DNA of 64,000 bases from contig CBDAOY010000006.1 of the NCBI GenBank assembly GCA_965198225.1, positions 448,001 through 512,000 of the forward strand, in the 5' to 3' direction. The stretch is from Terriglobia bacterium. Lineage in GTDB: Bacteria; Acidobacteriota; Terriglobia; 20CM-2-55-15. Position 1 is the stretch's first letter. Each line of letters begins with the position of its first letter. The notes under the pieces are model-generated. The model was given only the letters and a program-made list of their open reading frames with translations. It searched no databases and was not told where the DNA came from. Below are positions 1 through 49,422 of the stretch, one piece after another. Both the position numbers and the translations under genes were made by a program.

Positions 1-42
1 ACAGATCCGGGCCGGGATAGTCGAACCCGGCGACTCGCTGCG

Positions 43-4526: not shown

Positions 4527-4573
4527 GTCTCTCTCCCTCCCAAAAGTGGATACAGCATCAGGAACGACCGATA

Positions 4574-4861
4574 CTACTTCCTCCAGTCGCCCTGATCGTA
4601 TTCGGCATGGGTGAGCACATGGCGGATGAAGATCCTGCCTTTCTTGTAGCGGATGGTGACGATGAGGCGGTATTTGTTGCCGCTGATATTGAACACCGTC
4701 AGCCCGTCCACGTAGTCGGCGGAAGGGTAGGTTTTTCGAACATCCACCAGACTAGTCCAGCTGGCCTGCTTTGCCACGCGGTACCACGCTCTCAATGGCG
4801 TTTCCGCGTCCTGATGCTTCTCCCAGAATCCTTTCAGTCGTTTGAGGGAAACTATGTGCAT
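4574..4861 (-). CDS. higB: HigB-type mRNA interferase toxin
   Basis: MHIVSLKRLKGFWEKH...PLRAWY...VFNISGNKYRLIV...LTHAEYD; toxin-first gene order. Confidence 0.92.
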   Translation of the reverse strand: MHIVSLKRLKGFWEKHQDAETPLRAWYRVAKQASWTSLVDVRKTYPSADYVDGLTVFNISGNKYRLIVTIRYKKGRIFIRHVLTHAEYDQGDWRK

Positions 4862-5018
4862 CAGGTTTTGTGCGACCGAATACAAACCCAGAATATTCGC
4901 ATTCTGCGATAATGTCAATCGGGATGTTCGCGAATTGCGAAACATGCGAAGAAGGATAGCAGACCAGGAGGGGCGTCGAACGTTGAAAGAGAATTCCCTC
5001 ATCCTCCAACTTTTCTGC

Positions 5019-6470: not shown

Positions 6471-8813
6471 ATGTCCCCCATTCGATGGCTCGCCAATTCC
6501 GTCATTCCGACTTTGTTTCTTATCGCGACCGGCTGCGCAGGACTCACCGATGAGTCGTCCGTTCCGGCCACACTGGACGAGCTCGCGCGGCAATCCCTGG
6601 CTCGGATCGACGGGGATCTCACCGTGCCAGGGTTGCGGCAGCCCGTCGAGGTCATCCGAGACCAGTGGGGCATGCCGCACATCTACGCCCAGAACACGGA
6701 CGACCTCTTCTTCGCGCAGGGGTACGTCATGGCTCAGGATCGGCTCTGGCAGATGGAGCTGTGGCGTCGTTGGCATGAAGGGCGCCTCTCCGAGATTTTC
6801 GGCCCGGAGGCCTTCGAGTACGACCGGCGGACGCGGCTCATGATGTTCCGGGGTCCCTGGGACGTGGAGGAGTGGTCGCGCTACCACCCCGAGGCGGAAC
6901 AAATCTTCACTGCTTACGCCAACGGGGTGAATGCGTTCATCGAACAGAACGCCGATAACCTGCCTTTGGAGTTCAAGCTCACTGGAGTTCGCCCGGATCC
7001 CTGGACAGCGCAAACGGTGGTCCTTCGCTGGGCCCAGATCGGCTTGTCGAGCGTTCGCGGGCACGCCATAAGCGAAATCCAACTCGCGATGAACGTGGCC
7101 CGTTACGGCGCGGAGGAAGCCAACCGACGCGCGTCACCCGATCCCTACGCGGACCTGGTCGTGCCCGACGGCCTCGACGTGAACCTGATCACGCAGGAGG
7201 TTCTGAGCGTCGCGCGCGCGGGTGACGGAGATCCGTTCGCGGGGTCGAACCTTCCCGCGCTCGAGGTCGTCGAGCCCTATCGATCTCTTCTCTCGGAGGT
7301 CCGCACGGCGATGGTTTCGGCCCCGTGGGACCCGGCGGACGCGGGGAGCAACAACTGGGTGGTGAGCGGTGAGCGGAGCTCGACCGGGGTGCCGATCCTG
7401 TCGAACGACCCACATAGGCGCATCGAGATGCCAGCGCTCCGCTACTTCGTGCATCTGAACGCTCCCGGCTGGAGCCTGATCGGGGGCGGTGAGCCCCCCT
7501 TCGTGGGCACGATGGCTGGGAACAACGAGAATGTGGCGTGGGGGTTTACCTTTGCCGGTACCGACATGGTGGACCTCTACGTGGAAGAGTTGAACCCGGA
7601 CGATCCGACCCGGGTGCGGTGGCAGGACGGATGGGAGCCCATCCGCGAGATCGAGGAAGAGATCCGGGTCAAGGGCGAAGTCGAGCCGCGCACGGTTGTC
7701 CTCAAGTTCAGCCGCCACGGCCCGATCTTCCACGAGGATATTGAGAATGACCTGGCGTACGCCGCGCGCTCCGTGAACCAGGAGCACGGGACGGCTCCCT
7801 ACCTGGGCAGCTTCAAGCTCGCCCAGGCGACCAGCTGTGAGGACTTCTTCGAACGGGCTATGTACTGGGTGGTGCCCACCCACAACCTGATTTGCGGAGA
7901 CAGCGAGGGAAACATCGCCCTCCAGGTGACGGGGCTTACCCCCGATCGGGATGGCTGGAACGGCCGTCTGCCCGTGCCCGGAAACGGTCAATACGAGTGG
8001 AGGGGCTTCAGGGACGACCTCCCGCGCGAATTCAATCCGGCTCGGGGTTACATCGCGACGGCGAACAACAATACGCATCCTGATGGCTACCAGGGCCGCC
8101 CTGTGTTCTACCACTCGACCCGGGGCGTGGAGACCTCGCGCATCACGCGACTCCATCAGATCTTCGCATCGCAAGAGATCCTTTCCGTCGAGGATCACAA
8201 GCGGATCCAGATGGACGCATACATCCTCCGGACCGCGCGGGACATCCCCTACTTTCAGGGCTGGACTTCCCAGGACCCACAAGTAGAGCGGGCGCGCGCC
8301 ATGATCGCGGACTGGGATGGCGTGTTGGGTCGCGAGAGCGTTCCCGCCGCGGTTTACAGACGCTGGACGAGCGAGGCCGACGAGGCAATCCAGGCCCCAC
8401 AGACCCCGGCTGCCCAGAAGCAGGCGATGGTCGAGGACGGCCTCCGAACGGCCCTCGCCAGACTTACGAGCGATTATGGGGAGGATTGGTCCGAGTGGCG
8501 CTACGGAAGGATCAACCAGAGCAACCTCGGGCACACGTTCATTCCGGAGTTCGATTTGCCTCCGGTCGAGCGGCCCGGCGCCTTTGGATCCCTGAACGCC
8601 AGCGGGGCGAACTTCAGGCGCATCATCGATCTGTCGAATCTCGACAACTCCGTCTGGACGAACGCCCCCGGACAATCGGGTCAGCCGGGAAGCCCATACT
8701 ACGGCGACATGCGCGAGTACCTTGGAAACGGAGAGCATGCCCCGCTCCTGTTCACGAGGGGCGCGGTGGAAGGAGCGGCAGCCCACCGGTTGAACCTTCT
8801 TCCCGGGAGCTAG
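6471..8813 (+). CDS. Penicillin acylase family (S45) Ntn-hydrolase, probable lipoprotein
   Basis: RDQWGMPHIYA, AQDRLWQME, catalytic GSNNW, NDPH, PGQSG motifs; LIATGC lipobox. Confidence 0.95.
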   Translation: MSPIRWLANSVIPTLFLIATGCAGLTDESSVPATLDELARQSLARIDGDLTVPGLRQPVEVIRDQWGMPHIYAQNTDDLFFAQGYVMAQDRLWQMELWRRWHEGRLSEIFGPEAFEYDRRTRLMMFRGPWDVEEWSRYHPEAEQIFTAYANGVNAFIEQNADNLPLEFKLTGVRPDPWTAQTVVLRWAQIGLSSVRGHAISEIQLAMNVARYGAEEANRRASPDPYADLVVPDGLDVNLITQEVLSVARAGDGDPFAGSNLPALEVVEPYRSLLSEVRTAMVSAPWDPADAGSNNWVVSGERSSTGVPILSNDPHRRIEMPALRYFVHLNAPGWSLIGGGEPPFVGTMAGNNENVAWGFTFAGTDMVDLYVEELNPDDPTRVRWQDGWEPIREIEEEIRVKGEVEPRTVVLKFSRHGPIFHEDIENDLAYAARSVNQEHGTAPYLGSFKLAQATSCEDFFERAMYWVVPTHNLICGDSEGNIALQVTGLTPDRDGWNGRLPVPGNGQYEWRGFRDDLPREFNPARGYIATANNNTHPDGYQGRPVFYHSTRGVETSRITRLHQIFASQEILSVEDHKRIQMDAYILRTARDIPYFQGWTSQDPQVERARAMIADWDGVLGRESVPAAVYRRWTSEADEAIQAPQTPAAQKQAMVEDGLRTALARLTSDYGEDWSEWRYGRINQSNLGHTFIPEFDLPPVERPGAFGSLNASGANFRRIIDLSNLDNSVWTNAPGQSGQPGSPYYGDMREYLGNGEHAPLLFTRGAVEGAAAHRLNLLPGS

Positions 8814-9021: not shown

Positions 9022-10530
9022 TTGCCAATAGGAATTGAGTGCCCTATGCACGTGATCTCGGAAGACCCATCGCTCGGACCGGCTGCAGCGAATCGTAAAT
9101 CGTTCCTACTCCTGCGCTGGCTGCTGATCATACTTGCCGGGTATCTCACGATGTTTACGAATATCAACGAGGAGGCTCTGGTCGGCAATTTCCTTCTGGT
9201 CACCGCTTTCGCGTTATCGAATGTTCTGATAAGCCTTTCACCTTTACCACTAGTTGTGGCGCTCAAGTCGCGGCATATACTGGCAGCCATCGACGCGGTT
9301 TTTGTCTGCGCATTCCTCTACTACCTCCGCGTGGATCAGGCGTCGTTGCATCTGCCATTTATGGGTGTGGTCGTGCTGGCTATCCTCTGGCCAGACTTGC
9401 GAGTCGTTCTCTTCGCGTTGTTTGTCGTCAGCCTTCTGTTCGGACTGCTAACCAATTTCCAGCTGTTTGGTGCCGGCATCAATGTCCAGCTCGACGAGTT
9501 TCTGGCGCTGGCCCTTCTGTTTGTCGTCTCCATTTTCTATATCTTCATGGTCGACCGATTTGATCGCGACAGTGAGATTTCGGAAGCGTTGATCCAGGAA
9601 AAGCGCAACGCCGAGAACATCTCGGACATTACGCGAAAGTTATCGACTTCTCTGGAAGCCAAGGAAATCCTGACCATGCTGGTCGAGCGGTTCGCGGAAA
9701 TGATCCCCGCAGCAAAATGTTCGATTGTCAGGATGAGTCCCGCAGAAGATGCGGTGATCGTGGCGAGTTCCGACCCGGACATGGCGCCCAGGGTCTCTCT
9801 CGACGATGCTCCAGCGCTCCGAGAGGCCTTGGAAGGCAAAAAGAGGACCAGCGCCCCGCTGAAACCCGGAACGGACACGCTTGCAGTGCCCATGGTCAGT
9901 CGGGATGAAGTCATTGCATCGGTCTACTTCGAAAAGATTGTTGATCAAGATAGCCCGTGGGAAGGCAGTCTCAGTCTCATTGAGATCGTCGTCAGTACAG
10001 CGGCGAATGCCCTGGCTAACGCCGAGCGCTTCGACGAGCTGAAACTTCTGGCGAACACGGATTCTATGACGAAGCTTGCAAACTACGATTTCTTCAAGAC
10101 ACAGCTTTCCTACGAAATAGATCGAGCGAAAAGACATGACCGCACGGTCTCGCTACTTATGGTTGATTTGGATTGGCTCAAAAATATCAACGACGAGCTC
10201 GGTCACCCTGTCGGCGACCGCGTGATTCGATCGGTTGCAGATGCTATTCGTTCCAATTGCAGAGATATCGACGTGGGCGCCCGCTGCGGAGGAGAAGAGT
10301 TTGCCGTCATTCTTCCCGAAACAGACTTGGACGACGGAATGAAGGCAGCGGAGAGGCTGCGCCAACATATTGAGAAAATCGAGCGGTTCGACACCAAGAT
10401 TACCGTGTCAATCGGGGTTGCCAATTTTCCGGCCAACGCTGAAACCGGGGAAGATTTAGTCGCGGCTGCGGATGAGGCCCTGTATGCGGCTAAGCGTGGA
10501 GGTCGCAATCAAGTCGCTGCCCTTAACTAG
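9022..10530 (+). CDS. Membrane-bound GAF-GGDEF diguanylate cyclase
   Basis: N-terminal TM helices, GAF-like middle region, D..K.IND.LGH..GD, RDID I-site and GGEEF. Confidence 0.92.
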   Translation: MPIGIECPMHVISEDPSLGPAAANRKSFLLLRWLLIILAGYLTMFTNINEEALVGNFLLVTAFALSNVLISLSPLPLVVALKSRHILAAIDAVFVCAFLYYLRVDQASLHLPFMGVVVLAILWPDLRVVLFALFVVSLLFGLLTNFQLFGAGINVQLDEFLALALLFVVSIFYIFMVDRFDRDSEISEALIQEKRNAENISDITRKLSTSLEAKEILTMLVERFAEMIPAAKCSIVRMSPAEDAVIVASSDPDMAPRVSLDDAPALREALEGKKRTSAPLKPGTDTLAVPMVSRDEVIASVYFEKIVDQDSPWEGSLSLIEIVVSTAANALANAERFDELKLLANTDSMTKLANYDFFKTQLSYEIDRAKRHDRTVSLLMVDLDWLKNINDELGHPVGDRVIRSVADAIRSNCRDIDVGARCGGEEFAVILPETDLDDGMKAAERLRQHIEKIERFDTKITVSIGVANFPANAETGEDLVAAADEALYAAKRGGRNQVAALN

Positions 10531-10564
10531 CCCATCACCCTGGGCTACGGCGCACAAATCACAC

Positions 10565-12334
10565 CTACACAGACTTCAATCGCGCCAACTCTTCCTGTAC
10601 CACGCTTGGCTCAAGTTTTCGAAAGAGCGGTTTGGGTTCCTCGAGCCCCTGCCCTACGGCAAGTCGCCGGGGTTTCCAACGACAAGTGGAATCGTTGGAA
10701 CCATACTCGCCCCCAAGCACACTTCGCTCACCAAATGCGTCATGAACCCTTTCAACGGCTGGCTCGACGAGAGTGTCTCTGTAGCCCAACAGCCTGCTGA
10801 CCTGGTGGCTGCTGTGGGGCAAGAAGGGCGAGAGGACCACGCTGAGATGGTCGAGGGTTTGCAGAGCCGCGTATTGCACAGTGGCGGCTCGATCCGGATC
10901 AGTCTTCAGGAGCTTCCAGGGTTGTTGTTGAGTGAGATACAGGTTAGCCCGGTGCGCGAGAGCGAGCGCCTCCTGCAAAGCGGCTCGAATCTCGACCCTT
11001 TCGAGGCGAGACCCGACGGCCTGGAACGCTCTTTCGCCGGCCAGTAGAAGTTCCCGATCGCCGGGTTCCAGCGACCCCGGTTCAGGGACTCGACCGTATG
11101 AGCGCCAGGCCAGGCCGAGAATGCGATTGGCGAGGTTGCCCCACACACCAACCAACTCGTTGTTGTTGCGTTCAACGAAGTCCTTCCAGGACCAGTTCGC
11201 GTCTCGCGTCTCCGGCGCGTTTGCCGCAAGGTAGTACCGTAGCTGATCGGCCTGGTAACGATCCTCAATGTCAGAGAGGCTGAGGCCCCAGCCTTCGCTC
11301 GTACTCATTTTCTTGCCCTCGAGATTGAGGAACTCGTTCGCCGGCACGTCATAAGGCAGGACGAGACCGCCGTGACCCATCAGCAGGGCTGGCCAGATGA
11401 TCGTGTGGAACGGGATGTTGTCCTTGCCGATGAAGTAGTACGACCGAACCTGCTGTGCTTGCGCTTCGCCCGGATTCCACCAGGCGTGCCACTGATCGGC
11501 GTGTTGCCGTCCTTGCGCCCACTCGATGGACGCCGAAAGGTATCCGATCACCGCGTCGAACCAAACGTACAGTCTCTTCCGTTCAAAGCCCGTCTCAGTG
11601 ACCGGAACAGGGATTCCCCATTCGATATCCCGCGTGATCGCACGTTCCTCCAGGCCGCTGCTCAACCAGTTCCGGGTGAATGCGAGTGTGTTCTTGCGCC
11701 AATGGGATCGATCGATGCCGTTCAGCCATCCCGAGATGTCTGGTTCGATCCCCGGAAGATCGAGGAGAAAATGCTCTGTGTCGCGAAACGTAACAGGGGC
11801 ACCGTCCAGCGTTGACATTGGCCCGATCAAGTTCTCTGGATCGTGGACACGCCCACAGTTGTCACACTGGTCTCCCCGCGCCCGTTCGAAGCCGCAATTG
11901 GCACAGCGACCTTCGACGTAACGGTCGGGAAGGAACCGGCCCAGGGTCTCGGAATAGGAACCAGTGACGCTCCTTTTCGTCACGAAACCCTTTTCTGACA
12001 GGCGCAGGAAAAACTCCGAGGTGACCTGATAGTGATTCTCGGAATACGTCTGCGTGAAAAGATCGAAAGAGACCCCCAGCTTCGAAAAGGTAGTCAGAAA
12101 GGATTCGTGATATCTGCGGACCAAGTCACCGGGCGCCACTCCCTCCCGTTCAGCCCGGAGCGTGATGGGCGTTCCGTGACAGTCCGACCCGGAAACCATC
12201 AGGACTTCGTTCCCACAGAGCCGATGGAATCGGGCGAAAATATCGGCCGGCAAGTACGCCCCGGCAAGGTGTCCAACGTGCAACGGGCCATTTGCGTATG
12301 GCCAGGCTACACCCACGAAGATTCGGTCGGCCAT
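10565..12334 (-). CDS. metG: Methionyl-tRNA synthetase
   Basis: PYANGPLHVGH (HIGH), CANC/CDNC knuckle, YVWFDA, GKDNIPFH, KMSTS; ATG at 12334 with GAGGAGG RBS. Confidence 0.97.
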   Translation of the reverse strand: MADRIFVGVAWPYANGPLHVGHLAGAYLPADIFARFHRLCGNEVLMVSGSDCHGTPITLRAEREGVAPGDLVRRYHESFLTTFSKLGVSFDLFTQTYSENHYQVTSEFFLRLSEKGFVTKRSVTGSYSETLGRFLPDRYVEGRCANCGFERARGDQCDNCGRVHDPENLIGPMSTLDGAPVTFRDTEHFLLDLPGIEPDISGWLNGIDRSHWRKNTLAFTRNWLSSGLEERAITRDIEWGIPVPVTETGFERKRLYVWFDAVIGYLSASIEWAQGRQHADQWHAWWNPGEAQAQQVRSYYFIGKDNIPFHTIIWPALLMGHGGLVLPYDVPANEFLNLEGKKMSTSEGWGLSLSDIEDRYQADQLRYYLAANAPETRDANWSWKDFVERNNNELVGVWGNLANRILGLAWRSYGRVPEPGSLEPGDRELLLAGERAFQAVGSRLERVEIRAALQEALALAHRANLYLTQQQPWKLLKTDPDRAATVQYAALQTLDHLSVVLSPFLPHSSHQVSRLLGYRDTLVEPAVERVHDAFGERSVLGGEYGSNDSTCRWKPRRLAVGQGLEEPKPLFRKLEPSVVQEELARLKSV

Positions 12335-12379
12335 TGCGGCCTCCTCACAATTAGAACTGATTCTGTAAACGGACAATAG

Positions 12380-12426
12380 TGACCTGTAACAGTGCTATCG
12401 GTACCAGCGTTCACTGTTACAGGCCA
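12380..12426. mobile_element. Internally deleted MITE (terminal inverted repeats only)
   Basis: TGACCTGTAACAGTGCTATCGGTACCAGCGTT joined to CACTGTTACAGGCCA, flanked by ATAG/CTAG; same ends as 61199-61465. Confidence 0.8.
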
Positions 12427-12578
12427 CTAGATTGGGCGCAGAAAGTCTATAAGGCGGCGGGGGCCGCCATACTGAAGATACGGTGCGGGATGGGTTGGAC
12501 TCTGAGCATCACCTTGGATTTTAGCAGGGTAGGCCAACCTTGAACAACGGCGCGGGTAGCCCGATGGAGACAAACGAT

Positions 12579-14444
12579 TCAGTTGGTTTTCATCATTTCC
12601 GCCGCAGATCCGAGTGCCCTGGTCTCCGCGTCGCGGTGAAACTGCCGGGAGTACAATCGCGCGTAGGTGCCCTGACGCGCCAGCAGCGTGGCGTGGTCTC
12701 CTTCCTCGACCACACGACCCCGATCTATTACCAGGATGCGGTCCGCTGCGCGGATCGTCGAGAGCCGGTGCGCGATGATCAGGCTGATCCGGCCCTGGAG
12801 CACGGCTTCGATTCCCTTCTGGATCCGCCTTTCGCTTTCTGTATCCACCGATGATGTTGCCTCGTCGAGCACCAGGATCTGCGGATCGGCCAGCACCGCC
12901 CGTGCGAGAGATACGAACTGCTTCTGACCGGTAGACAACCGACTGCCACCCTCGCCGACCTCCGTCCCGTATCGGTCCCGAAGATCACCAATGAAAGTGT
13001 GGGCTCCGACGTGACGTGCTGCGGCGCGCACTTCCTCGTCCGTGGCGTCCAACCGTCCGTACCGAATGTTCTCGTGGATCGTCCCGCTGAACAGATGGGG
13101 TTCCTGCAAGACCATTCCCAGGTTCGATTGCAACCAGTGCAGGCTCCGCTGTCGGTAGTCGATGCCGTCGATCCGGATGGCGCCCAAAGTCGGTTCGTAG
13201 AAACGACACATGAGGCTCGCGATCGTGCTCTTGCCGCTTCCGGTCTCTCCGACCAGGGCAACGCTCTCACCCGCATGAATCTTGAAATCGATATCTCTAA
13301 GCACCGGCTCCTCATCGATGTAAGCGAAGTGGACGTGATCGAAGGCGATCTGACGGATGATCTCTTCTCCACCATCGAGGGCCCGACCGGGTCGAGGCTC
13401 GGCCCTCTGACGCTCCAGCGCCGCCTGCACTTCGGGAGCATCGTCGATCTCCGGCTCGGTGTCCAACAGCCCCTGCAACCGCTCCGCCGATGCCTGTGCC
13501 TCCTGCAGACCGGTGAAACGCTCTGCCATTTCCTGGATCGGCATGTGGAACAGGCCGGCGTACTGTATGAACGCCACCAGTTCACCGAGGCCGATGGCAC
13601 TGCCGACGACGAGGCCCCCACGCCACAGCGCCAGCCCTAAGCCGGCCGCACCCAGTGTCATGACGATCGGCAGGTACACCGCCGACTGGAGGGCACTCCG
13701 CAACGAATACCGGAACATCTGACGCGTCAGGACCTCGAACTCCTCCAGGTTCTCCTCCTCACGGACCAGTGCCCGGGTTGTTCGCACACCGACGATTCCT
13801 TCGTTGAAACCAGCGGTGATCCTGGAGTTCGCGCGCCGCGCCTGACGCTGCGCGCGAATGAGTTTCCTCTGATATACGACCGTCACCACCGACAGCGGTG
13901 GGACGATCACCAACACGAACAACGCCAGCCGCCAGTTCATCCAGAACATCATGGCCGTGACCCCCGACAGCAGGAACACGCCCCAAACGACGTCGAGCAG
14001 AGTCCAGGGAAGGATGCCCGAGATGCGGGCGCAATCCGATGTCATGCGTGCCATCAGCCATCCCACCGACCGTTTATCGTAGAAGGAGAACGACAGCTCC
14101 TGGAGCCGCGTGAACCCGGCGTGACGCAGGTCGTGTGCAACTCCCGTGGCCGCAATGCCGGCAAGGACGATGAACACCCAGACCATCGACGCCATGATGG
14201 CGGCCAGCGCGACGTAGACGCTTCCATAGATCCAGATTCGCCCTCCTCCGGCAGTGACGGCGTCATCGATGACGGCGGCGGTGATTCGCGGCAACAGGAC
14301 GTCGATCACGGCCACCACCATCCCGGCGAGCGCGAGTCCAGCCAGCGACCAGCGGTAGGGGCGGGCACGGGCGACGATTCGTTTCCACAGCTTTGGATCG
14401 ATCGGGTGATCGTAGTAGTCGTGTTCGTCCTGATAGGCGTTCAT
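12579..14444 (-). CDS. ABC exporter permease/ATPase, subunit 2 of a heterodimer
   Basis: TMD plus GETGSGKS, LSTGQKQ, ILVLDEATSSVD, IAHRLST. Confidence 0.95.
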   Translation of the reverse strand: MNAYQDEHDYYDHPIDPKLWKRIVARARPYRWSLAGLALAGMVVAVIDVLLPRITAAVIDDAVTAGGGRIWIYGSVYVALAAIMASMVWVFIVLAGIAATGVAHDLRHAGFTRLQELSFSFYDKRSVGWLMARMTSDCARISGILPWTLLDVVWGVFLLSGVTAMMFWMNWRLALFVLVIVPPLSVVTVVYQRKLIRAQRQARRANSRITAGFNEGIVGVRTTRALVREEENLEEFEVLTRQMFRYSLRSALQSAVYLPIVMTLGAAGLGLALWRGGLVVGSAIGLGELVAFIQYAGLFHMPIQEMAERFTGLQEAQASAERLQGLLDTEPEIDDAPEVQAALERQRAEPRPGRALDGGEEIIRQIAFDHVHFAYIDEEPVLRDIDFKIHAGESVALVGETGSGKSTIASLMCRFYEPTLGAIRIDGIDYRQRSLHWLQSNLGMVLQEPHLFSGTIHENIRYGRLDATDEEVRAAARHVGAHTFIGDLRDRYGTEVGEGGSRLSTGQKQFVSLARAVLADPQILVLDEATSSVDTESERRIQKGIEAVLQGRISLIIAHRLSTIRAADRILVIDRGRVVEEGDHATLLARQGTYARLYSRQFHRDAETRALGSAAEMMKTN

Positions 14445-16306
14445 GCTCCCCCCTGCTTGGTCGACCCTGCAGCCGCGTCAACATCACGCTGGAGTTCGTC
14501 TTCGAGCGCGTTCTGGATTTCCCAGATGCGTCGGTACATACCCGGACCGGCCACGAGCGTGCTGTGATCGCCCTGCTGGATCACACGCCCCTGGTCGAGC
14601 ACGAGGATGTGGTCGGCATTCATCAACGTGGACAGTCGGTGTGCGATTACGATAGTGGTTTGCCGCCCGCGCCGCTTGTCGAGCGCTTCGAGGATCAGGG
14701 CCTCGGTTTCAGTGTCCACCGCGCTCAGGGCATCGTCGAGAATGAGCAGTACCGGTTCCCTCACCAGCGCACGGGCCAAAGCCACCCTCTGGCGCTGACC
14801 TCCGGACAGGGTGACGCCGCGCTCTCCGACGAGGGTCTCGTAGCCCTTGTCAAATCGGACGATCGTGTCGTGAACGCACGCGGTCAAGGCGGCGTCGGCG
14901 ACCTCCTCCTTGGTGGCCGTCGTGCGGCCCAGCCGGATATTCTCACGCAGAGTCTTTGAAAACAGGAACGGCTCCTGCATGACGGCGGAGATCTGTGCGC
15001 GCACGTCCTTGCGGTCCATGGCAGTGATGTCCTGACCGTCGATCTCGATCGTTCCCTCGTCGGGATCGTAGAAACGGAGCAGGAGGTTGACGATCGTGGA
15101 CTTTCCCGAACCGGAAGGCCCGAGCAGCGCCAGCGTGCTGCCGGCCGCTGTTTGGAACGAAACTGCCGACAGGGCCGCTATCCCTGAGTCGTGCGAGTAG
15201 GTGACGTTTCGGAACACGATCTGGCCTGGTGTTTGAACCGTCGACGGCCTGACGCTCTCGACAGGATCCTTCTCTCTCGGATGTCCCAGGATCTCATTGA
15301 TGCGTCCGATGGCGACGGTCGCTTTTCCGAGTTCGGTCAGGATCCTGCCCATCATCCGGACCGGCCATATGAACATGTTTACGACCATCAAGAAGAAGAA
15401 GAACGCCCCGAGTCCCATGCTACCCGAGGCCAAACGCACGGCGCCGGTGAGGATAACGACCGCCACCTGTCCCATGCACAACACATCCGAGGCTGACCAG
15501 AACCCGGCCATCAGCCGATAGAGGCCGTAGTTCAGATCGCGATGCTCGCCGTTCCGCGCCGCGAACTTCTTGATCTCGTAGTCCTGCCGGGCGAACGCGC
15601 GTACGACCCGAATTCCGGTCAGGTTCTCCTGCAGGGTGCTGGTCATGCGTCCTTCGGCCTCGTCCACGGCCAGGAAGCGGGTCCGCACCCGCCGGAAGAA
15701 CGTCACCGAGAAACCAACGATCGGAAGCACCAGCACCAGCGAAACCAAAGTCATTCGGGCATCGATGGCGAACATCAGCGGAAGCGGGATCACCAGCATC
15801 ATCGATGCCCGTCCGATCTCGACGACCTGGCTCGCGAGGAACTGCCGGAGCGTGTCGACGTCGGATGTGCAACGCTGGATCAGATCCCCGGTCCGTGCCT
15901 CGTCATAGAAAGAACAAGGCAAATGCTGCAGCTGATCGTACAGACGGTCGCGGACTCGCCGCGTGATCTGTTCGCTCGCCAGAGCCGACCAGCGGCCGCG
16001 CAGGTAGGTGAAGACCCCGGCCAGCATGGTCAGCACAACTATGGCAACAGCCGACAGCCACAAGTTCGCGCCGAGGAAGTCCGCCCCACCCGACCACTCG
16101 AGGGCGCGCAGGACGAACGGGGACGCCGCAGCCGGGTCGGAGGCGAGCACGCCGTCGAGCACCATCGCCGGCACGAGAGGCACGAGGTAGAGAAAGCAGG
16201 ACGCCACCACCATCGCTGCAATCGCAGCTCCGTACCGAAGGCGTTCGCCTTCGCTGAGCTGCCATATCAATCTGTATCTTCTGTATTTCGAAGTCATCCC
16301 GTTCAC
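14441..16306 (-). CDS. ABC exporter permease/ATPase, subunit 1 of a heterodimer (degenerate site)
   Basis: TMD plus GPSGSGKS, LSGGQRQ, Walker B LILDD with Asp for the catalytic Glu; stop overlaps next start (ATGA). Confidence 0.95.
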   Translation of the reverse strand: MNGMTSKYRRYRLIWQLSEGERLRYGAAIAAMVVASCFLYLVPLVPAMVLDGVLASDPAAASPFVLRALEWSGGADFLGANLWLSAVAIVVLTMLAGVFTYLRGRWSALASEQITRRVRDRLYDQLQHLPCSFYDEARTGDLIQRCTSDVDTLRQFLASQVVEIGRASMMLVIPLPLMFAIDARMTLVSLVLVLPIVGFSVTFFRRVRTRFLAVDEAEGRMTSTLQENLTGIRVVRAFARQDYEIKKFAARNGEHRDLNYGLYRLMAGFWSASDVLCMGQVAVVILTGAVRLASGSMGLGAFFFFLMVVNMFIWPVRMMGRILTELGKATVAIGRINEILGHPREKDPVESVRPSTVQTPGQIVFRNVTYSHDSGIAALSAVSFQTAAGSTLALLGPSGSGKSTIVNLLLRFYDPDEGTIEIDGQDITAMDRKDVRAQISAVMQEPFLFSKTLRENIRLGRTTATKEEVADAALTACVHDTIVRFDKGYETLVGERGVTLSGGQRQRVALARALVREPVLLILDDALSAVDTETEALILEALDKRRGRQTTIVIAHRLSTLMNADHILVLDQGRVIQQGDHSTLVAGPGMYRRIWEIQNALEDELQRDVDAAAGSTKQGGA

Positions 16307-16429
16307 AAGACGTCGCTATGCCTGAACGACCAGGCGCTTGCAGAACACTCAACGAACGGGATTATCTCGGAATCGAAGGCCGGGATGGATGCCCGCTCGT
16401 CCTCGAGCGGGCAGATGGATCAGACTCCT

Positions 16430-16507
16430 CTACGCACCCGCTCGGGCTGCCATCGGCTGATCGCCGACCGCACCGACAAATGGGAATTTGATAGTGTGGA
16501 TGCGCAT
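16430..16507 (-). CDS. Putative 25-aa leader peptide MRIHTIKFPFVGAVGDQPMAARAGA
   Basis: ATG at 16507 with AGGAG 8 nt upstream, TAG at 16430-16432; lies between a promoter and hairpins upstream of the ABC genes; below the ORF-track cutoff. Confidence 0.7.
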   Translation of the reverse strand: MRIHTIKFPFVGAVGDQPMAARAGA

Positions 16508-16567
16508 CGAATTTGCTCCTGACCCACCGGTCAAAAAGATATTTAACCGCGCTGTCGCGATCTAAAT

Positions 16568-16596
16568 AATATAAGCCGATTCCCGAAGGAAGGCAA
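16568..16596 (-). promoter_or_regulatory. Sigma70-type promoter for the leader peptide/ABC operon
   Basis: TTGCCT-N17-TATATT on the minus strand in a locally AT-rich patch. Confidence 0.65.
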
Positions 16597-16773
16597 AACC
16601 TTTGAGGAGTGCGTATCCGGATCGAATCGCGTGGACTACGGCCTCGAACGCCTCGCGATTCTGCGCTACGACATCGACGACATCCGCAACGTCGAGGAGG
16701 CCGGCGTGGGTTAGGAATCGTCCTTTCGGCCTCGCTCCAGAGCCGCCCAAGCCAAACGAAACTTCGGGATCGG

Positions 16774-16861
16774 GTGTAGGTGCGCTCTATGAGCGCACGT
16801 GTTTCGGTTGGAAGAGAGTGTTTCGGTTCGGAAAGAGTGCGGTCATAGACCGCACCTACAC
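16774..16861 (+). repeat. REP doublet (REPIN-like) with a tandemly duplicated spacer
   Basis: GTAGGTGCGCTCTATGAGCGCAC ... GTGCGGTCATAGACCGCACCTAC; GTGTTTCGGTT occurs twice in the spacer. Confidence 0.88.
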
Positions 16862-17120
16862 CGTCGCCTCGAGCAGAATTGACCCTGAGAAGTCCCCATG
16901 AACCAGTCCATGATTCCGCTGCCACAACGGCTCAGAAGTCAGCTGGCGACCGACATGAAGAAACGACGGCCGAACCGGATGTAACCACCGCTCGGATTCT
17001 CGCCGCTAAGAAAGTCCCAGGACGGACCTTAGAGACCGAGAACTCGACAACAATTGCTAGCCGCGTATCCCATCAGTTGATAAGCTTTTCTCATATATCC
17101 TTTCCATTCGAGGGAGAAGC

Positions 17121-17681
17121 ATGCTTCGGATACTCGCGATCGTCGCATTGTTGGCAGCGCCGCTCCTTTCCCAGGAACGGCAGGAGGCGGGCGCGCCGGA
17201 ACTGGTCGACATCGGCCGCATCACGAAGATCAATGCCAGGGACCAGTGGTTTGAACTCCGGGTCCGGGCATCCGAACCGGCACAGGCTCGCAGGACCGGG
17301 TCTGGAGGATAGGGTGGAGAGGTTCATGTCGGACTCGGGCGTCGCCTTCCGCGCGAACGTGGTGTTCCCATCCCGAACGATCCCAGTACCGGTGAACCCG
17401 TACCCGACCCCCGCAATGACCCTCGGACCGGTTTGCCCGACCCACGCCTCGATCCCCGGGCTCCATCTCCTGTTCCGATACCCCTGCCGTCTGCACCATC
17501 GGAGCGTACGCGTTACGTCACCTCCCGCGTTTTCGTTACCGACGATACGGTCATCGAGCACGACGGCAAGGCAATTAGTTTCCGCCGCCTCAAAGTCGGC
17601 TTTACAGTTGCCGTGACGGGGTTGATCAGGGGGACGCTGACAGAAGCGAGAAAGATCGAAGTCCAGTTCACAAACCAGTAG
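17121..17681 (+). pseudogene. Exported Pro-rich, OB-fold/DUF5666-like protein interrupted by an in-frame TAG at 17310-17312
   Basis: ORFs 17121-17312 and 17433-17681 share a frame and the interval is open; signal peptide at start; VTDDTVI...LKVGFTVAVTG...ARKIEV at end. Confidence 0.6.
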
Positions 17682-17746
17682 CGGATTCTCGCGGGGAACT
17701 CCGCTCTGGACGACCACGTCAAGCGCGCTTTGGGGCGGACGGAAGG

Positions 17747-20700
17747 CTAGGGGGTCGCGCGATCCGTCGCCTCGGCTTTGCGGGGTTGGACCGATCCCTC
17801 CATCAACAGCACCGACGGAATTGACGCGGGATCCGCGAGCCTCAACAACTGATAGCCGATACCCGACGCGCCCTGGAAGAGACCGGGGGAATACGCACCT
17901 TTCGGGAGTGCCGTAACCAGGTGATAGCCGCCGGACTCCCGGGCCCTGCTCATCAACCGGGCCGCCTGCCCGAGCGCTTGATCCATCAGGTCCTGCCGGT
18001 CGAGCCGTTGCCCCGCCGTCCACAGGAACTCGATCCGTCCGAAACTCCCACAACAGAGGTTGTCCGCCCCCTGCAGGCCGAAATCCCGGGTTGTTTGTAA
18101 GGCGATCTCGATCTCGGTCCGGATCGCCGTGAGTCGCGTGAGCGGTGTTCCCGCCAGGCGGGCCAGGCCGATTCCTGGGGCACCGTGGCACCAGGTGGTC
18201 ATGAAGGTCGGTTCAGGCCGGCTATCATCGAATTGACGGAGATCCTCCCAATTCCCTTTCTCCGGAGAGAAAAGGGTTCGCTCGTAGGCCAGAAGGTCCT
18301 CGGCGGTCTCGAGAAACAGAGCGCTCCCGCTTGCGTTATGGAGTTGAGCCAGCGCATAGGCCATGCCCGCTGCGCCGTGGGATAGACCGCTCAACAGCAC
18401 GCCGTCTCTTCTACCTGCCACATTCCCGGCGAAGTCGTCGCGCCTGAGAAGCTGCGCACGCAGGTGCTCGCCACAGACGACAGATTGTCGCAAGAACTCT
18501 TCCTCATCCGTAGCGTCGTACAGGGCAAGCAACGCCAGGACAGCGCCGGCGGCTCCGGAGACGATATCGAGTGCGCTGTCGTTCTCTATCCGGTCTGGTG
18601 TCATCAGGGAGGCCGCTCGACAGGCGTCTCCGAGCAGGGAAGGGTCTCCCAGGAACCGTCCCGTCTGCACCAGAGTGAAGATCAACGCACCGAGGCCGGT
18701 CAACCCGCCGATGAGCGCGCCCCTGGCAAGAGCCTGGGCCTGCTCGGCGTCATGCAGCCGCTCGCGTACCGGCTGCAGAGCCGCTAGGGATAATTCCCGA
18801 AATCCCGCCCCGCTTGTCGTCTTCTCCAGGGCGGCAAGAAAAAGGGCCACACCGCAGACGCCGCCGTAGAGATCGACTCCCATGGGTTGAATCCGAAACT
18901 TGCCCGCGGGGGGGACGGGAGCCGAAGTAATCCAGGTCGCGCTGCCGTCGGGCGCCACGATCGCCCTTTCCTGCAGGTCCGAGGCGATGGCAACGGCTTC
19001 CGCGATCGCCTTCTCCGGAGTCAGGTTGACGATCTGCCGGGACAGTTCCGTGCTGAGCTCAGACGAGACAGCTCCAACCCGGGCCCGCGTATGGAAGGAA
19101 AGACGGATGACATCAATCTGGCGCTTCATGTCCCGCTCGTCGAGATCACCGATTCGGGCCGTCACGCGTTCAAGGCCCGATTCCTCGAACCAGTCATCGA
19201 TGGTCCGCCCGGCAGAGACCTTCAGGGACCTGCTTTCTGGCAAGACCGAGAAATAGGGGATATCCAGGTTTTCCAGGTCACGGATTTCCGTGTCGAGAAT
19301 AGGCCAGAAGGACGGCTTTGAACCTCCTCTCAAAAGATCGGCGGCGAGAGATTCCAACTCGATACTGCGATCAGCGCCATCCCGCATGTATTCGGGACGG
19401 AGGGTTTTCATGAAGAGCGCCCCGTAGGTCTTCGTCGGCCTGAAGATGAACCGCACCTCATGCTGGGCGAGGCCGCTCATGCATCGTTCGAAATCCGGCG
19501 CCGCACGGTGCTCGAGAATCAACCCGTACACCGTCTGAAACCCCAGCACGATGTCGTCGACGAACCGATCGGGAGAATGGCCCGTGCCGGAGATAAAAGG
19601 CACGTTCTGCGCTGCGGTGCGCTTGAGTTTCTGGTGCTCCAGCGTCATGGCGTCGGTGTTGATATGCTGCCAGTCAAGGTGCGCGAAATCGGTCTCCTGA
19701 TCCGACACGCCCCCCAAACCGCTGACGTCGAAACTTTCGCCTCTTGCGCCGACATGCCATAACGGCAGGAGACCGGTGTCGAGAACTGACTCGGAGAGCA
19801 TTCGATTCGCCAGAGCTTCCGCCCCGGACCGGACTCCCTCGTTCGGTCCTGCCGCGGGAAGGGGGCGCATCAACGTCTCCACGTCGATGAGGACCGGATG
19901 CTCACCGCTGGCGATCATGTTCTCGAAATGCAGGTCGTAGCCGTGAAGGGCGTGTGCCATCGCCAACAGCATCCCGGAGCGCCGATAGTAGCGTTCGAGC
20001 TCCTGCCGGTCGTCGGTGGGTTCGTGGACAACGTACTCGGCCCAGCCGTAGCCGGAGCAACTGAGAACTTTGAGACGCCTTAGTGGGGGCGCGGCGCCCC
20101 TGGCGTTCAGGCAATCGATCAAATCGCCGAAGGCCTGCTCGGAACCCATGTCTCTGGGCTTGTAGATTAACTGCAGCCCGCAAGAGAACACCAAGCCGAT
20201 CACGGCGTTCCCGCCCCGGTGCCGGTCGGAGAGAAAGGGTCCGAGTTCATCGATCACTCCAAGACCGGTGTCTTCACGTCCAAAGGTCTCCGCTATCAGC
20301 GGCCAGTCTTTCTCGAGACGAAGCAAGAACACGCTCATCGCCTCGATCCAGGTTTCGGTCAAGACAACAGAGAGACGGGCCAGAACAGCGTATTCCAGAA
20401 AGAACTCAATGAGGCCGCCTTCGACCATTCGAGACACGTAGGCGCGATAGAGAGTCCGCGATGATTCTTCCTCGGAAGATGACAAACGGTCAAAAACCGA
20501 AGACCGTCGCTGCGACAGGAAGATCGAGAACTCCAGTTGCAGGGAAGGGGCGGCGAAGTAAGACAGCCACTTCAAAAGACCCCGTTCCAGATCGGAACGG
20601 GCCCCGTGGCTTAGATGGGGATAACTGGAACCTGCTCGTTCCCGTAATCGCCTTCGGGCAACAGCGATGAAAGGCAGGAAAAGATCCTGGAAAGGGACAG

Positions 20701-21055
20701 GATCGTCGAATGGCAGGAGGCGGGACACTGCGGTTTCGTCGCCGTCCGGGGAAGCATCCGCCGCTTCCAGGACTTCCCGCAAGGTCGCCGGCCAGGAAAG
20801 TTTCGAACCGTCGGCCGGTTGGACGACGCCTAATACTTCTCGGGCTCGGATTTGGTCGAAGCCGTCCCAGGCAAGCCTTTTCTGCCATCGTTCGCGATCG
20901 CCGGTGGCCGCGTTCCTCGTCCACCGCTCCAGGCGAGCCCGGACGGTGTCGGCTCCGGTACTGCCACGGTCTGGCGTGTATTCAGGACCGAAGCGCTCCA
21001 GCAGCGTGCTGGCCCGGCCAGCGATGGTTCGCAGATCCGCCGCGGAGATTTTCAT
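17747..21055 (-). CDS. lanM: Class II lanthipeptide synthetase (DUF4135 dehydratase + LanC-like cyclase), ProcM-like CCG type
   Basis: IYKPR, DLHFEN, IDVET, FRPTKTY dehydratase motifs; GLSHGAAG, WCHGAPG, NLCCG cyclase motifs. Confidence 0.95.
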   Translation of the reverse strand: MKISAADLRTIAGRASTLLERFGPEYTPDRGSTGADTVRARLERWTRNAATGDRERWQKRLAWDGFDQIRAREVLGVVQPADGSKLSWPATLREVLEAADASPDGDETAVSRLLPFDDPVPFQDLFLPFIAVARRRLRERAGSSYPHLSHGARSDLERGLLKWLSYFAAPSLQLEFSIFLSQRRSSVFDRLSSSEEESSRTLYRAYVSRMVEGGLIEFFLEYAVLARLSVVLTETWIEAMSVFLLRLEKDWPLIAETFGREDTGLGVIDELGPFLSDRHRGGNAVIGLVFSCGLQLIYKPRDMGSEQAFGDLIDCLNARGAAPPLRRLKVLSCSGYGWAEYVVHEPTDDRQELERYYRRSGMLLAMAHALHGYDLHFENMIASGEHPVLIDVETLMRPLPAAGPNEGVRSGAEALANRMLSESVLDTGLLPLWHVGARGESFDVSGLGGVSDQETDFAHLDWQHINTDAMTLEHQKLKRTAAQNVPFISGTGHSPDRFVDDIVLGFQTVYGLILEHRAAPDFERCMSGLAQHEVRFIFRPTKTYGALFMKTLRPEYMRDGADRSIELESLAADLLRGGSKPSFWPILDTEIRDLENLDIPYFSVLPESRSLKVSAGRTIDDWFEESGLERVTARIGDLDERDMKRQIDVIRLSFHTRARVGAVSSELSTELSRQIVNLTPEKAIAEAVAIASDLQERAIVAPDGSATWITSAPVPPAGKFRIQPMGVDLYGGVCGVALFLAALEKTTSGAGFRELSLAALQPVRERLHDAEQAQALARGALIGGLTGLGALIFTLVQTGRFLGDPSLLGDACRAASLMTPDRIENDSALDIVSGAAGAVLALLALYDATDEEEFLRQSVVCGEHLRAQLLRRDDFAGNVAGRRDGVLLSGLSHGAAGMAYALAQLHNASGSALFLETAEDLLAYERTLFSPEKGNWEDLRQFDDSRPEPTFMTTWCHGAPGIGLARLAGTPLTRLTAIRTEIEIALQTTRDFGLQGADNLCCGSFGRIEFLWTAGQRLDRQDLMDQALGQAARLMSRARESGGYHLVTALPKGAYSPGLFQGASGIGYQLLRLADPASIPSVLLMEGSVQPRKAEATDRATP

Positions 21056-21222
21056 GAACGGTCAGGTGGGCTTGCGGTTGCATCAGACGGGAAAGACTTC
21101 TCGCCGCGGCGTGCCGGCCGACGTCCGCCCCCGTGTCTTTCATTCGGATGACGTTCGTCCGGCCGACCGGCGCGCCTTAGAGTCGTTGCGGACCCTCAGG
21201 CGACGCCATTCTTGCCGGGCAT

Positions 21223-21642
21223 CTACCCGCGGAAATCGTCGCAACCAAACACGGTGCATCCACCGCCGTACGCGCTGTAGCAAAAGGCGCTGTCGGTGAT
21301 GGCGCTATTGGTACCCGCTGCTTGGATCCTATCCACATCGATGCCCGGGCCGGGAATGCCGGATTGGCCAATGCCCCCCCTCCTAAAAGTCGGGTCTCCT
21401 CCTCCTCCGGCAACGGCATCGAGCGCATCGTCGCTCAAGAGGCCGCTCGGTATCTGCGGAAGCACAAAGTAGGCGATATTCTCCGCCTCCTCGACAACCT
21501 TGATCTCCAGACTGTCCGGAATCTGGGCCCCGGTCTCGCGGGCAATAACTCCCTTCGGGTCGTTGATCAACTCCTTCCTGAACGCCTCGTCCTTTAACGC
21601 TTTCGCGATGATATGCAGTCTTTGCTCCATCGTAGAAGCCAT
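21223..21642 (-). CDS. NHLP (nitrile-hydratase-like leader) RiPP precursor with a 59-aa core
   Basis: IIAKALKDEAFRKELINDPK...IKVVEE...YFVLP...LSDDALDAVAGG leader; core has 8 Ser/Thr and 3 Cys; AAGGAGG RBS; directly upstream of lanM. Confidence 0.93.
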   Translation of the reverse strand: MASTMEQRLHIIAKALKDEAFRKELINDPKGVIARETGAQIPDSLEIKVVEEAENIAYFVLPQIPSGLLSDDALDAVAGGGGDPTFRRGGIGQSGIPGPGIDVDRIQAAGTNSAITDSAFCYSAYGGGCTVFGCDDFRG

Positions 21643-21830
21643 ATTGTATCCTCCTTGTTGAGATGAATCCTCCCCATCGATATTCGAGTTTCCGAGAAGG
21701 TCATGTGCGGTTCAAGTAGAATCGGATACCGGCATTCAAAGCTCGGGAGTAAGCCTGAACGGGGACGCTGGACTCCCGTTGCGGGTAGAGGGATCCGGCC
21801 GACAAGCGAGCTCTCGATTCAGGAGGAGAT

Positions 21831-22661
21831 GTGACACCGACGAAGGCACCGGCGCCATCATTCATTTATGGAACGGCGTGGAAGAAGGAGGCCACGGCGG
21901 AGCTGGCCGGAACTGCGACGCGCGTCGGTTTCAAGGCGATCGACACGGCCAACCAGCCCAGGCACTACCAGGAGCCGCTGGTGGGCGAAGCACTGGAGTC
22001 GCTCGCCTCAGCCGGCACTCCGAGGGAGTCCCTGTGGGTGCAGACTAAATTCACTCCGTTTAACGGCCATGATCACCGGGTGCCTTATGACCCTGGCGTA
22101 GATCTGACGACGCAGGTGAGCCAGTCTTTCGAGTCCTCTCTTCGAAACCTGAGGACCGACTACGTCGATTCCTATCTCCTGCACGGTCCCTATTCCTATC
22201 CAGGGCTCGGAGACGACGACTGGGAGGTCTGGAGAGCCATCGAAGAAATACACAGGTCGGGTCACGCGGACATGATCGGTGTCAGCAACGTCATGCCCGG
22301 GCAGCTTCGCACGCTCGTGGAACAGGCTGAAGTCAAACCCATGGTCGTACAGAACCGGTGTTTTGCGGACCGCGGGTGGGATCGACAGGTCCGCGAGATC
22401 TGCCGAGCGAAGGGAATAATGTACCAGGGATTCTCCCTCCTGACGGCGAATCCCGACCTGCTCCGCCACCCGGAGGTGGTGTCTATCGCCGGAAGGCTCG
22501 GGGTCGAGCCCCAGCAGGTAATCTTCCGCTTCGCAATGCAGGCAGGAATGGTGCCGTTGACGGGAACCACTTCCGAACAGCACATGAGAGAGGACCTCAG
22601 CGTCTACGAGATCGAGCTGAGCGCCGATGAAGTCGGCCTTATTGAGTCCATCGCGGGATGA
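21831..22661 (+). CDS. Aldo/keto reductase
   Basis: YGTAWK, IDTA..Y, QTKF, SLRNLRTDYVDSYLLHGP, IGVSN motifs. Confidence 0.92.
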   Translation: MTPTKAPAPSFIYGTAWKKEATAELAGTATRVGFKAIDTANQPRHYQEPLVGEALESLASAGTPRESLWVQTKFTPFNGHDHRVPYDPGVDLTTQVSQSFESSLRNLRTDYVDSYLLHGPYSYPGLGDDDWEVWRAIEEIHRSGHADMIGVSNVMPGQLRTLVEQAEVKPMVVQNRCFADRGWDRQVREICRAKGIMYQGFSLLTANPDLLRHPEVVSIAGRLGVEPQQVIFRFAMQAGMVPLTGTTSEQHMREDLSVYEIELSADEVGLIESIAG

Positions 22662-25699: not shown

Positions 25700-25801
25700 C
25701 AGGATCCGTCAACCGGAACACCCTTAGTCGAGGCGACCCCGCGATCATGTGGGGTCGTCCCCACAGCCTGGAACCTTCACCGATCATCCTTGTCCAAATC
25801 C

Positions 25802-25871
25802 GTGTAGGTGCGGTCTATGACCGCACATTCTTCGATCCGACACAACGTGCGCTCATAGAGCGCACCTACAC
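25802..25871 (-). repeat. REP doublet (REPIN-like), inverted orientation
   Basis: GTAGGTGCGGTCTATGACCGCAC ... GTGCGCTCATAGAGCGCACCTAC. Confidence 0.88.
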
Positions 25872-26051
25872 CCGATCACCACCTCATTGTGCTCTGCCAG
25901 CGAGCTGACCTGCCGGGCGCGTGTGATTGATCCACACTTCCGCTACGAGCAGGTTGACGCCGAAGCCCAGCCAGAAGGAGACACCGAATATCTCCTCGAT
26001 CAAGGGTCGCGGGTTCAAATCCCTCCTTCGCGATCGGCAGCTAACAAATGG

Positions 26052-30580: not shown

Positions 30581-30716
30581 AGGTTTCGGGAATTCAAATC
30601 CTCCCCCGCAATCCGCTGGAGATTGCGGGCCGGCAACCTTTTTCCGATATCATGCTTGAGCACGGAACGTTTCTACTTGGTGCAACTTGAGGGGTGTCGA
30701 GGTTCGTCAGATCAGG

Positions 30717-33170: not shown

Positions 33171-33289
33171 GTCCACCCCTTTCGCGGATTTCACCCTTAC
33201 CCCTCGGAGATCTAGAAGCGTACCGGTCCGAAGCTCTGTCGTGGGGCGCTTATCACACACGAGAACTTGCTTCGACTCAATCGCTTGGA

Positions 33290-33355
33290 TGTAGGTGCGC
33301 TCCATGAGAGCACTGCTTCGGTGCGAAGGGAGTGCGGTCATAGACCGCACCTACA
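33290..33355 (+). repeat. REP doublet (REPIN-like)
   Basis: GTAGGTGCGCTCCATGAGAGCAC ... GTGCGGTCATAGACCGCACCTAC, between convergent genes. Confidence 0.85.
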
Positions 33356-49257: not shown

Positions 49258-49422
49258 AGAGCACATGGGTCTTCGACGAAAGCGTGCGGTCATAGACCGC
49301 ACCTACACTTCCCCTCAGATCTCAACTCAACCCTGCCGCCACATCTTCCGTCTTGTGTAGGTGCGCTCTATGAGCGCACGACGCTTCGGCTCGAGGAATG
49401 TCCGGTCACAGAACCGCACCCC
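49258..49422. repeat. Two partly degenerate REP doublets
   Basis: GTGCGGTCATAGACCGCACCTAC at 49284 and GTAGGTGCGCTCTATGAGCGCAC at 49357, with degenerate partners. Confidence 0.8.

Follow-up and report, generated by a model that had tools for sequence, protein, structure and literature searches.

The locus described here lies in a 64-kb stretch of contig CBDAOY010000006.1, referred to below as the window. It comprises two adjacent genes: lanA, for a lanthipeptide precursor with a nitrile hydratase-like leader (NHLP), and lanM, for a class II lanthipeptide synthetase. Judged by its sequence, the class II lanthipeptide cassette is real and intact, and it combines an NHLP precursor with a LanM of the Cys-Cys-Gly (CCG) type. 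The first-pass annotation had proposed such a locus, and both family models score above their cut-offs. The matches of lanA to the NHLP model and of the lanM open reading frame (ORF) to its family model are not due to chance. The features are listed in table 1.

Table 1. Features of the lanA–lanM locus and the nearby exporter genes.
Feature	Window coordinates	Strand	Basis or remark
Shine–Dalgarno-like AAGGAGG	21650..21656	-	7 nt 5' of lanA ATG; direct sequence reading
lanA, NHLP-type lanthipeptide precursor, 139 aa	21223..21642	-	Stop codon 21223-21225; translation and TIGR03793
lanA leader, residues 1-80, ends AVAGG	21403..21642	-	TIGR03793 match stops at residue 80
Gly/Pro-rich spacer, lanA residues 81-110, weakly conserved	21313..21402	-	11/30 identical to P0126
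Predicted mature core, lanA residues 111-139 (TNSAITDSAFCYSAYGGGCTVFGCDDFRG)	21226..21312	-	10-precursor alignment
lanA–lanM intergenic spacer, 167 nt	21056..21222	-	No significant structure
lanM, class II lanthipeptide synthetase, 1102 aa	17747..21055	-	TIGR03897, DUF4135 and LANC_like
Dehydratase (DUF4135) domain, LanM residues 222-604	19244..20392	-	Pfam PF13575, E 4.2e-113
LanC-like cyclase domain, LanM residues 724-1084	17804..18886	-	Pfam PF05147, E 3e-57
Two ABC exporter genes, 621 aa each	14441-16306 and 12579-14444	-	ABC_membrane and ABC_tran; no C39 domain

The synthetase gene is intact, as had been claimed. It has no internal stop, and its product matches the LanM model TIGR03897 with 862.4 bits (cut-off 304) over model positions 2-932 of 932. 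The stored gene call for this protein, P0005, has 893 aa and starts about 209 residues downstream; the 1102-aa start is preferred because orthologues are conserved from M1 onward. In a HMMER alignment, residues D277, H279, K299, D374 and H376 of LanM pair with D252, H254, K274, D347 and H349 of CylM, and N379, D391, R535 and T541 pair with N352, D364, R506 and T512. All nine of the CylM residues for phosphorylation and elimination, as listed in PMC4550811, are thus present. The cyclase domain carries the zinc ligands C956, C1001 and C1002, and also H893. Its third zinc motif, C1001-C1002-G1003 (window 18047-18055), has the Cys-Cys-Gly of ProcM-type enzymes in place of Cys-His-Gly, and the first-pass reading of CCG rather than CHG was correct. 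With a full-length model match, the dehydratase residues and three zinc ligands, the protein belongs to the LanM family, and its activity is predicted.

The CCG motif is the rule among the nearest homologues. A search of 8000 candidates gave 330 matches with E <= 0.001. Across the window LanM and its best 120 of these 330, the third motif is CCG in 112 of 121 proteins, CWG in eight, CNG in one and CHG in none. In the same 121 proteins, the first zinc Cys is replaced by Ala in eight, and the His of the SHG motif by Gln in eight. The CWG proteins, probably P0080, P0084, P0086, P0089, P0091, P0093, P0115 and P0119, seem to form a subfamily whose cyclase site is dead. A starred clade of eight rows in the LanM tree described below may be the same set.

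The precursor begins with the 80-aa NHLP leader that had been reported, ending in LSDDALDAVAGG (residues 69-80). TIGR03793 matches residues 9-80 with 87.8 bits (cut-off 50.9, E 3.1e-25), covers model positions 7-77 of 77 and finishes at AVAGG. Pfam NHase_alpha gives 35.7 bits against a threshold of 27.2. The leader closes at a Gly-Gly boundary, G79-G80, which is invariant in 9/9 and in 10/10 aligned precursors. Hydrophobic residues precede it at -4 (V77), -7 (L74) and -12 (L69). These positions steer C39 peptidase domains (PMC12537861, section 6), so the boundary has the residues expected for C39 cleavage. The leader is followed by 59 residues and not by a short core.

Conservation of the precursor core and of the gene pair

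Conservation along lanA is uneven. Ten precursors from four lineages were aligned, the most distant orthologue being P0126 from Terriglobia. Identity to P0126 is 57/80 in the leader, 11/30 in residues 81-110 and 24/29 in residues 111-139. In this alignment the last 29 residues are the best conserved part of the precursor, and the 30-residue Gly/Pro stretch that follows the Gly-Gly is the least conserved. The terminal 29 residues hold five Ser/Thr and three Cys. S113, T116, S118, S123, T130, C129 and C134 are invariant in 10/10 precursors, and C121 is kept in 9/10. NHLP precursors adjoining LanMs average 26 residues after the Gly-Gly (Haft et al., PMC2887384). This average fits the conserved 29-mer and not the whole 59-mer; residues 111-139 are therefore read as the core, preceded by a spacer of residues 81-110. 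When 1.84 billion representatives were searched with phmmer for the 59 C-terminal residues, the precursor's own cluster alone was returned, with no detectable relatives of the core elsewhere. For want of such relatives, the scaffold of the product would be new.

Full-length relatives of lanA were sought in a word-indexed search of 5.8 billion protein clusters, which gave nine matches among 41 candidates. They share 89, 83 and 67 % identity, and matches beyond them are at leader level (<=57 %); the next after the four orthologue clusters has 57 % identity over half the query. For LanM, the best 120 of 330 homologues begin at 88, 81 and 66 % and then drop to <=45 %. The precursor and LanM clusters sit on contigs of equal size, which indicates that the pair travels together in four lineages.

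A contig scan with the four-orthologue LanM alignment recovered three loci from 68 pattern matches; the genomes with the 88 and 81 % orthologues are not represented in these. Gene neighbourhoods were compared with one of them, L001, which encodes the 66 % relative and is titled 'MAG: Terriglobia bacterium'. DNA homology between the window and L001 is limited to 21657-21230 and 21082-17798, and the intergenic spacer is not conserved. Antisense shadows and a GGDEF domain match aside, the only proteins in common are those of lanA and lanM. The 16 scanned flanking ORFs of L001 (within 10 kb) are unrelated housekeeping and signalling genes, with no transporter, protease or Radical_SAM among them. 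Because lanA and lanM alone are shared, the conserved unit is taken to be a two-gene cassette, of 3.9 kb in the window. The other two loci, L002 (36 % identity) and L003 (32 %), are too distant to inform on the cassette. L002 encodes a CCG LanM at 9983-13183 that has no adjoining precursor and is flanked by a large TPR/unknown protein and a catalase-peroxidase; a weak NHLP-profile match (E 0.009) lies 8 kb upstream of it.

The first-pass annotation had named a LanM phylogeny as a check. In a midpoint-rooted FastTree of 120 LanMs, which has SH-like support only and carries long-branch warnings, the four orthologues form one clade with 100 % support, and its stem is long (0.59). This clade lies within a 31-row group that holds named Dehalococcoidia and Ardenticatenales rows, and 24/24 named cyanobacterial rows stand across the midpoint root from it. 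The reference enzymes ProcM, SyncM, OspM, DprM, MppM and RosM are not among the rows of the tree.

Predicted maturation and alternative explanations

We propose, with a probability of about 0.72, that the self-contained lanA–lanM cassette makes a class II lanthipeptide. The pathway is a prediction throughout, from enzyme activity and ring pattern to both cleavages, the export route and any bioactivity. What the sequences show directly, and what it is built on, is that the genes are intact, belong to their families, encode the catalytic residues and occur together, with the conservation pattern described above. (i) LanM would bind the 139-aa precursor through the folded NHLP leader (residues 1-80). 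(ii) The kinase-like domain would phosphorylate Ser and Thr of the core and then eliminate the phosphate. (iii) The LanC-like domain, with its three-cysteine zinc site, would join three Cys (C121, C129, C134) to dehydro residues upstream of them. In the simplest topology without overlaps, the rings would run from T116 or S118 to C121, from S123 to C129 and from T130 to C134, leaving S113 and one of T116/S118 as dehydro residues. (iv) A C39-type protease encoded elsewhere would cut the leader at G79-G80. (v) A second protease would trim the 30-residue Gly/Pro spacer and so yield a product of about 29 residues that is specific to the Terriglobia-like lineage. LanM would be dedicated to lanA as its single substrate. 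The three-ring peptide and the two proteolytic steps by enzymes encoded elsewhere are predicted from the high conservation of the core and the low conservation of the spacer; two-step maturation is also implied by the length of the spacer. That a single conserved precursor accompanies LanM in four lineages suggests a dedicated enzyme rather than a ProcM-style enzyme with many substrates.

A fuller version of this model is put forward tentatively, and as a whole it is less likely than not. It holds that a dedicated single-substrate CCG LanM co-evolves with one conserved three-ring core, that an unusually long bipartite N-terminal region of 110 residues, made up of the folded NHLP leader and a disposable Gly/Pro spacer, is removed by two trans-encoded proteases, and that the scaffold is restricted to Terriglobia while its two-gene cassette is portable.

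Several observations weigh against the proposed pathway. The ring pattern is only the most economical reading of the sequence. Neither a C39 protease nor a second protease for maturation was identified in the window ORF scans or in the L001 flanks. The spacer has residues that are invariant in 10/10 precursors (T85, G92, P97, G98, G100 and D102), and on this pattern it may be functional rather than discarded. An ABC exporter pair lies 1.4 kb from lanM, and a link to the locus is possible but unproven. No obvious Shine–Dalgarno sequence precedes lanM. A sigma-70-like promoter is absent from the 188 bp upstream of lanA; three sites were found in 16000-22200, none of them there. In some assemblies of the same or sister lineages LanM is called in two pieces (P0146+P0148, P0140+P0141, P0138+P0142), and a precursor of 99 % identity, P0145, has Tyr for C121. 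P0145, P0146 and P0148 share one 123,710-bp contig. Some copies of the cassette may be decaying or mis-assembled.

If the invariant spacer residues matter, the final product could be the whole 59-residue peptide, with the Gly/Pro stretch kept as a flexible N-terminal tail. No second protease would then be needed, and none adjoins the locus in the window or the L001 flanks. The spacer is nonetheless the least conserved segment, and the average length reported for LanM-adjoining NHLPs matches the 29-residue conserved part; retention of the tail is possible, though rather unlikely. Fragmented LanM calls, the variant without C121 and the lack of a promoter-like site upstream of lanA would all suit a non-producing relic, either decaying or silent. 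Both window ORFs are intact, however, with all catalytic residues present. The LanM fragments may be assembly errors in metagenome-assembled genomes, and function is favoured by the purifying conservation of the core between lineages with LanM identity as low as 66 %. A relic is very improbable.

The ABC pair could alternatively belong to the locus as an exporter or self-protection pump, giving the order lanA-lanM-T1-T2 with only the protease in trans. Some actinobacterial lanthipeptide clusters rely on heterodimeric ABC exporters that lack a C39 domain. The two genes are on the lanM strand, 1.4 kb downstream, and overlap each other by 4 bp; against models of NHLP-bacteriocin export their products reach 274-313 bits. 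All scores are nevertheless under cut-off among the best 25 of 185 matched NCBIfam models per protein, the NHLP-export models included. The latter give 313.5 (cut-off 709.4) and 310.1 (853.3) bits for the gene at 14441-16306, and 274.2 (709.4) and 305.0 (853.3) for that at 12579-14444. Higher scores, of 393-410 bits, come from generic models, MsbA-related and cyanophycin-associated. Two small convergent ORFs on the plus strand (17121-17312 and 17433-17681) and a palindrome resembling repetitive extragenic palindromes (REP-like, 16773-16862) lie between the pair and lanM. A methionyl-tRNA synthetase (MetRS) gene directly follows the pair and suggests a housekeeping setting, and in L001 no ABC exporter homologue occurs within 10 kb of lanM. 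Membership of the pair in the locus is judged unlikely.

These results also bear on the description of the locus as minimal, with no C39, radical SAM, YcaO or immunity gene adjacent. A Pfam scan covered the 174 window ORFs of at least 100 aa, the end-open ORF at 1-822 (-) being set aside. None of the 174 matches Peptidase_C39, HlyD, Radical_SAM, YcaO or a stand-alone LanC. No neighbouring NHLP-type export system with a C39 domain (TIGR03794, TIGR03796, TIGR03797) was found in the window. The absence of those domains stands, and so does a two-gene unit as the part shared with L001; the two exporter genes had been overlooked. Removal of the leader in trans is a fair inference, with no C39 domain in the window and, in L001, neither a peptidase nor a transporter within 10 kb. 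Export may likewise act in trans, which is uncertain in the window with the ABC pair nearby.

A further alternative is a ProcM-style diversity system, in which the CCG LanM would serve many precursors scattered through the genome, lanA being one of them. The CCG motif has been linked to the promiscuous ProcM and SyncM (PMC10027976, PMC8524650), and the distant CCG relative in L002 has no precursor beside it. A profile built from nine NHLP precursors matched lanA alone (E 7.5e-50) among 1325 six-frame pieces of the window, the next best having E 3.6; the 23 kb of L001 likewise contain one NHLP precursor. Among the nine matches to lanA there is no sign of a paralogue family that shares an almost identical leader. 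Across four lineages no part of the precursor is better conserved than the core, whereas cores of the prochlorosin type are hypervariable. The expectation of more precursors elsewhere in the genome gains no support from a window with one precursor and four lineages with the same single, conserved-core precursor accompanying LanM, and a diversity system appears quite improbable. The dedicated lanA–lanM pair is retained as the preferred model.

Other features of the window

An attenuator hairpin between lanA and lanM was considered and is unsupported: the RNA fold has a z-score of -1.09, and 31 of 200 shuffles fold as well. Promoter and terminator scans gave nothing usefully placed for the operon, and Rfam (gathering threshold) and tRNA scans of the whole window gave no matches. 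A divergent gene for an aldo-keto reductase begins at 21831, upstream of lanA. The convergent region 17121-17681 (+) opens with a 63-aa ORF that has a signal-peptide-like start and a GAGGGAG ribosome-binding site, followed in frame by an 82-aa ORF. A single TAG (17310-17312) divides them, and the region represents a pair of small genes or, alternatively, a single gene of about 186 aa that a stop has interrupted. Neither ORF has a Pfam or NCBIfam match. An Atlas search with ORF 17433-17681 gave leads below 0.9 (DUF5666 0.82) besides one cluster at 0.90.

The REP-like palindrome has 26-nt arms, mostly as inverted pairs 20-44 nt apart, and occurs at 2200-2271, 16773-16862, 25801-25872, 33288-33313 and 49284-49379. 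With up to three mismatches the arms have nine matches, against none expected from 100 shuffles. The copy at 16773-16862 falls in the long stretch that separates the ABC genes from the small plus-strand ORF. Farther away, a tyrosine recombinase (40804-41769, -) adjoins a DDE transposase split over two frames, of which 41897-42958 covers profile positions 3-307 and 42921-43274 covers 316-415. This is probably a frameshifted insertion sequence (IS) element, 20 kb from the lanthipeptide locus. A HigB-like toxin ORF (4574-5002) adjoins an HTH/Xre-type ORF (4059-4526), and 4059-5002 (-) is likely a toxin–antitoxin pair. Secreted-type peptidases and amidases (S9, S15, M10-like, M16, penicillin amidase) are encoded 9-36 kb from the locus, at 37568-39655 (-), 49511-51460 (+), 53927-56578 (-), 57039-60176 (+) and 6471-8813 (+). 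Such proteases could carry out the second trimming step, though nothing links them to the locus.

The ADOP permease family is typical of Acidobacteria. A duplicated permease of this family lies at 30687-33170 (850.2 bits, cut-off 622.3), and outer-membrane proteins are also encoded in the window. Together with the Terriglobia title of L001, the only named close relative, these features make the suggested acidobacterial origin likely. The MetRS, an ambiguous taxonomic marker here, speaks against it: its nearest named relatives are from Chloroflexota (60-63 %), and a named Acidobacteriota row reaches 57 %.

Comparison with known systems

The system, from a soil-type bacterium, is of an ordinary, well-known type. 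It reveals no new biosynthetic principle, is a routine genome-mining find and should be flagged by standard software. Acidobacteriotal lanthipeptides are little explored. In literature listings on Acidobacteria and lanthipeptides and in passages of PMC10027976 and PMC13642348, neither this peptide nor a characterized acidobacterial NHLP lanthipeptide was found. The statement that NHLP–LanM pairings are mostly cyanobacterial was too narrow. NHLP precursors adjoining LanM-like enzymes were described in 2010 in Nostoc and Azospirillum (PMC2887384), and pairs have also been described from Desulfotomaculum and, in the roseocin family, from Actinobacteria.

The solved LanM structures, LicM2 (PDB 6st5) and CylM (PDB 5dzt), share the two-domain architecture and the conserved catalytic residues of the window LanM, which aligns over residues 190-1086 with LicM2 (E 3e-85) and over 198-865 with CylM (E 1.9e-41). 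Both are distant in sequence and have C-H at the third zinc motif instead of C-C, as read from the alignment for LicM2 and as Cys911/His912 for CylM (PMC4550811). Their substrates have short leaders, unlike lanA. A mersacidin-like lantibiotic was also considered. Lipid II-binding lantibiotics of that kind have a conserved CTxTxEC ring motif. In the window core, the corresponding ring, C129-T-V-F-G-C134, is one residue shorter and lacks the Glu, and the candidate was rejected; the likeness is limited to a Gly-rich ring with a C-T ring directly after it. Heavy tailoring as in a proteusin, by a radical SAM epimerase or otherwise, is likewise missing, with no Radical_SAM match in the 174 window ORFs or the 16 flanking ORFs of L001.

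Closer in kind are the characterized NHLP-modifying enzymes OspM and DprM. OspA/OspM (landornamide), DprE/DprM (Desulfotomaculum) and the window locus have in common a long folded NHLP leader with a Gly-Gly end and hydrophobic residues at -4/-7/-12, and a class II LanM that acts, or is predicted to act, on a C-terminal core (PMC12537861). Besides several precursors, the OspM and DprM clusters contain a C39 transporter and tailoring enzymes, of the radical SAM type or others (PMC12537861). As described, they differ from the window locus, where just two genes are present and the single precursor has a 30-residue spacer and three core Cys. The roseocin family, which combines NHLP leaders with CHG LanMs across several phyla, shares with it the NHLP leader and the position of lanA upstream of a single lanM (PMC10027976). 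Roseocin-family clusters have a CHG LanM and a peptidase-domain transporter, whereas the window locus has CCG and no such transporter.

The zinc site itself leads to ProcM and SyncM. CCG is regarded as the mark of ProcM-like enzymes (PMC8524650), and CCG LanMs have been linked with Nif11 leaders (PMC10027976). ProcM, SyncM and the window LanM share this site, a substrate with a long, protein-like leader and Gly-Gly end, and a protease and transporter that are not beside the synthetase. Prochlorosin precursors have Nif11 leaders and hypervariable cores and occur in tens of copies (PMC10027976, PMC8524650, PMC2887384); the window locus has, in contrast, an NHLP leader, a single visible precursor and a conserved core. 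If the window enzyme is dedicated to that precursor, it would run counter to CCG as the usual mark of promiscuity. The two-gene locus is small enough for direct expression, and with it one could test in a simple way if promiscuity towards substrates follows from a CCG zinc site.

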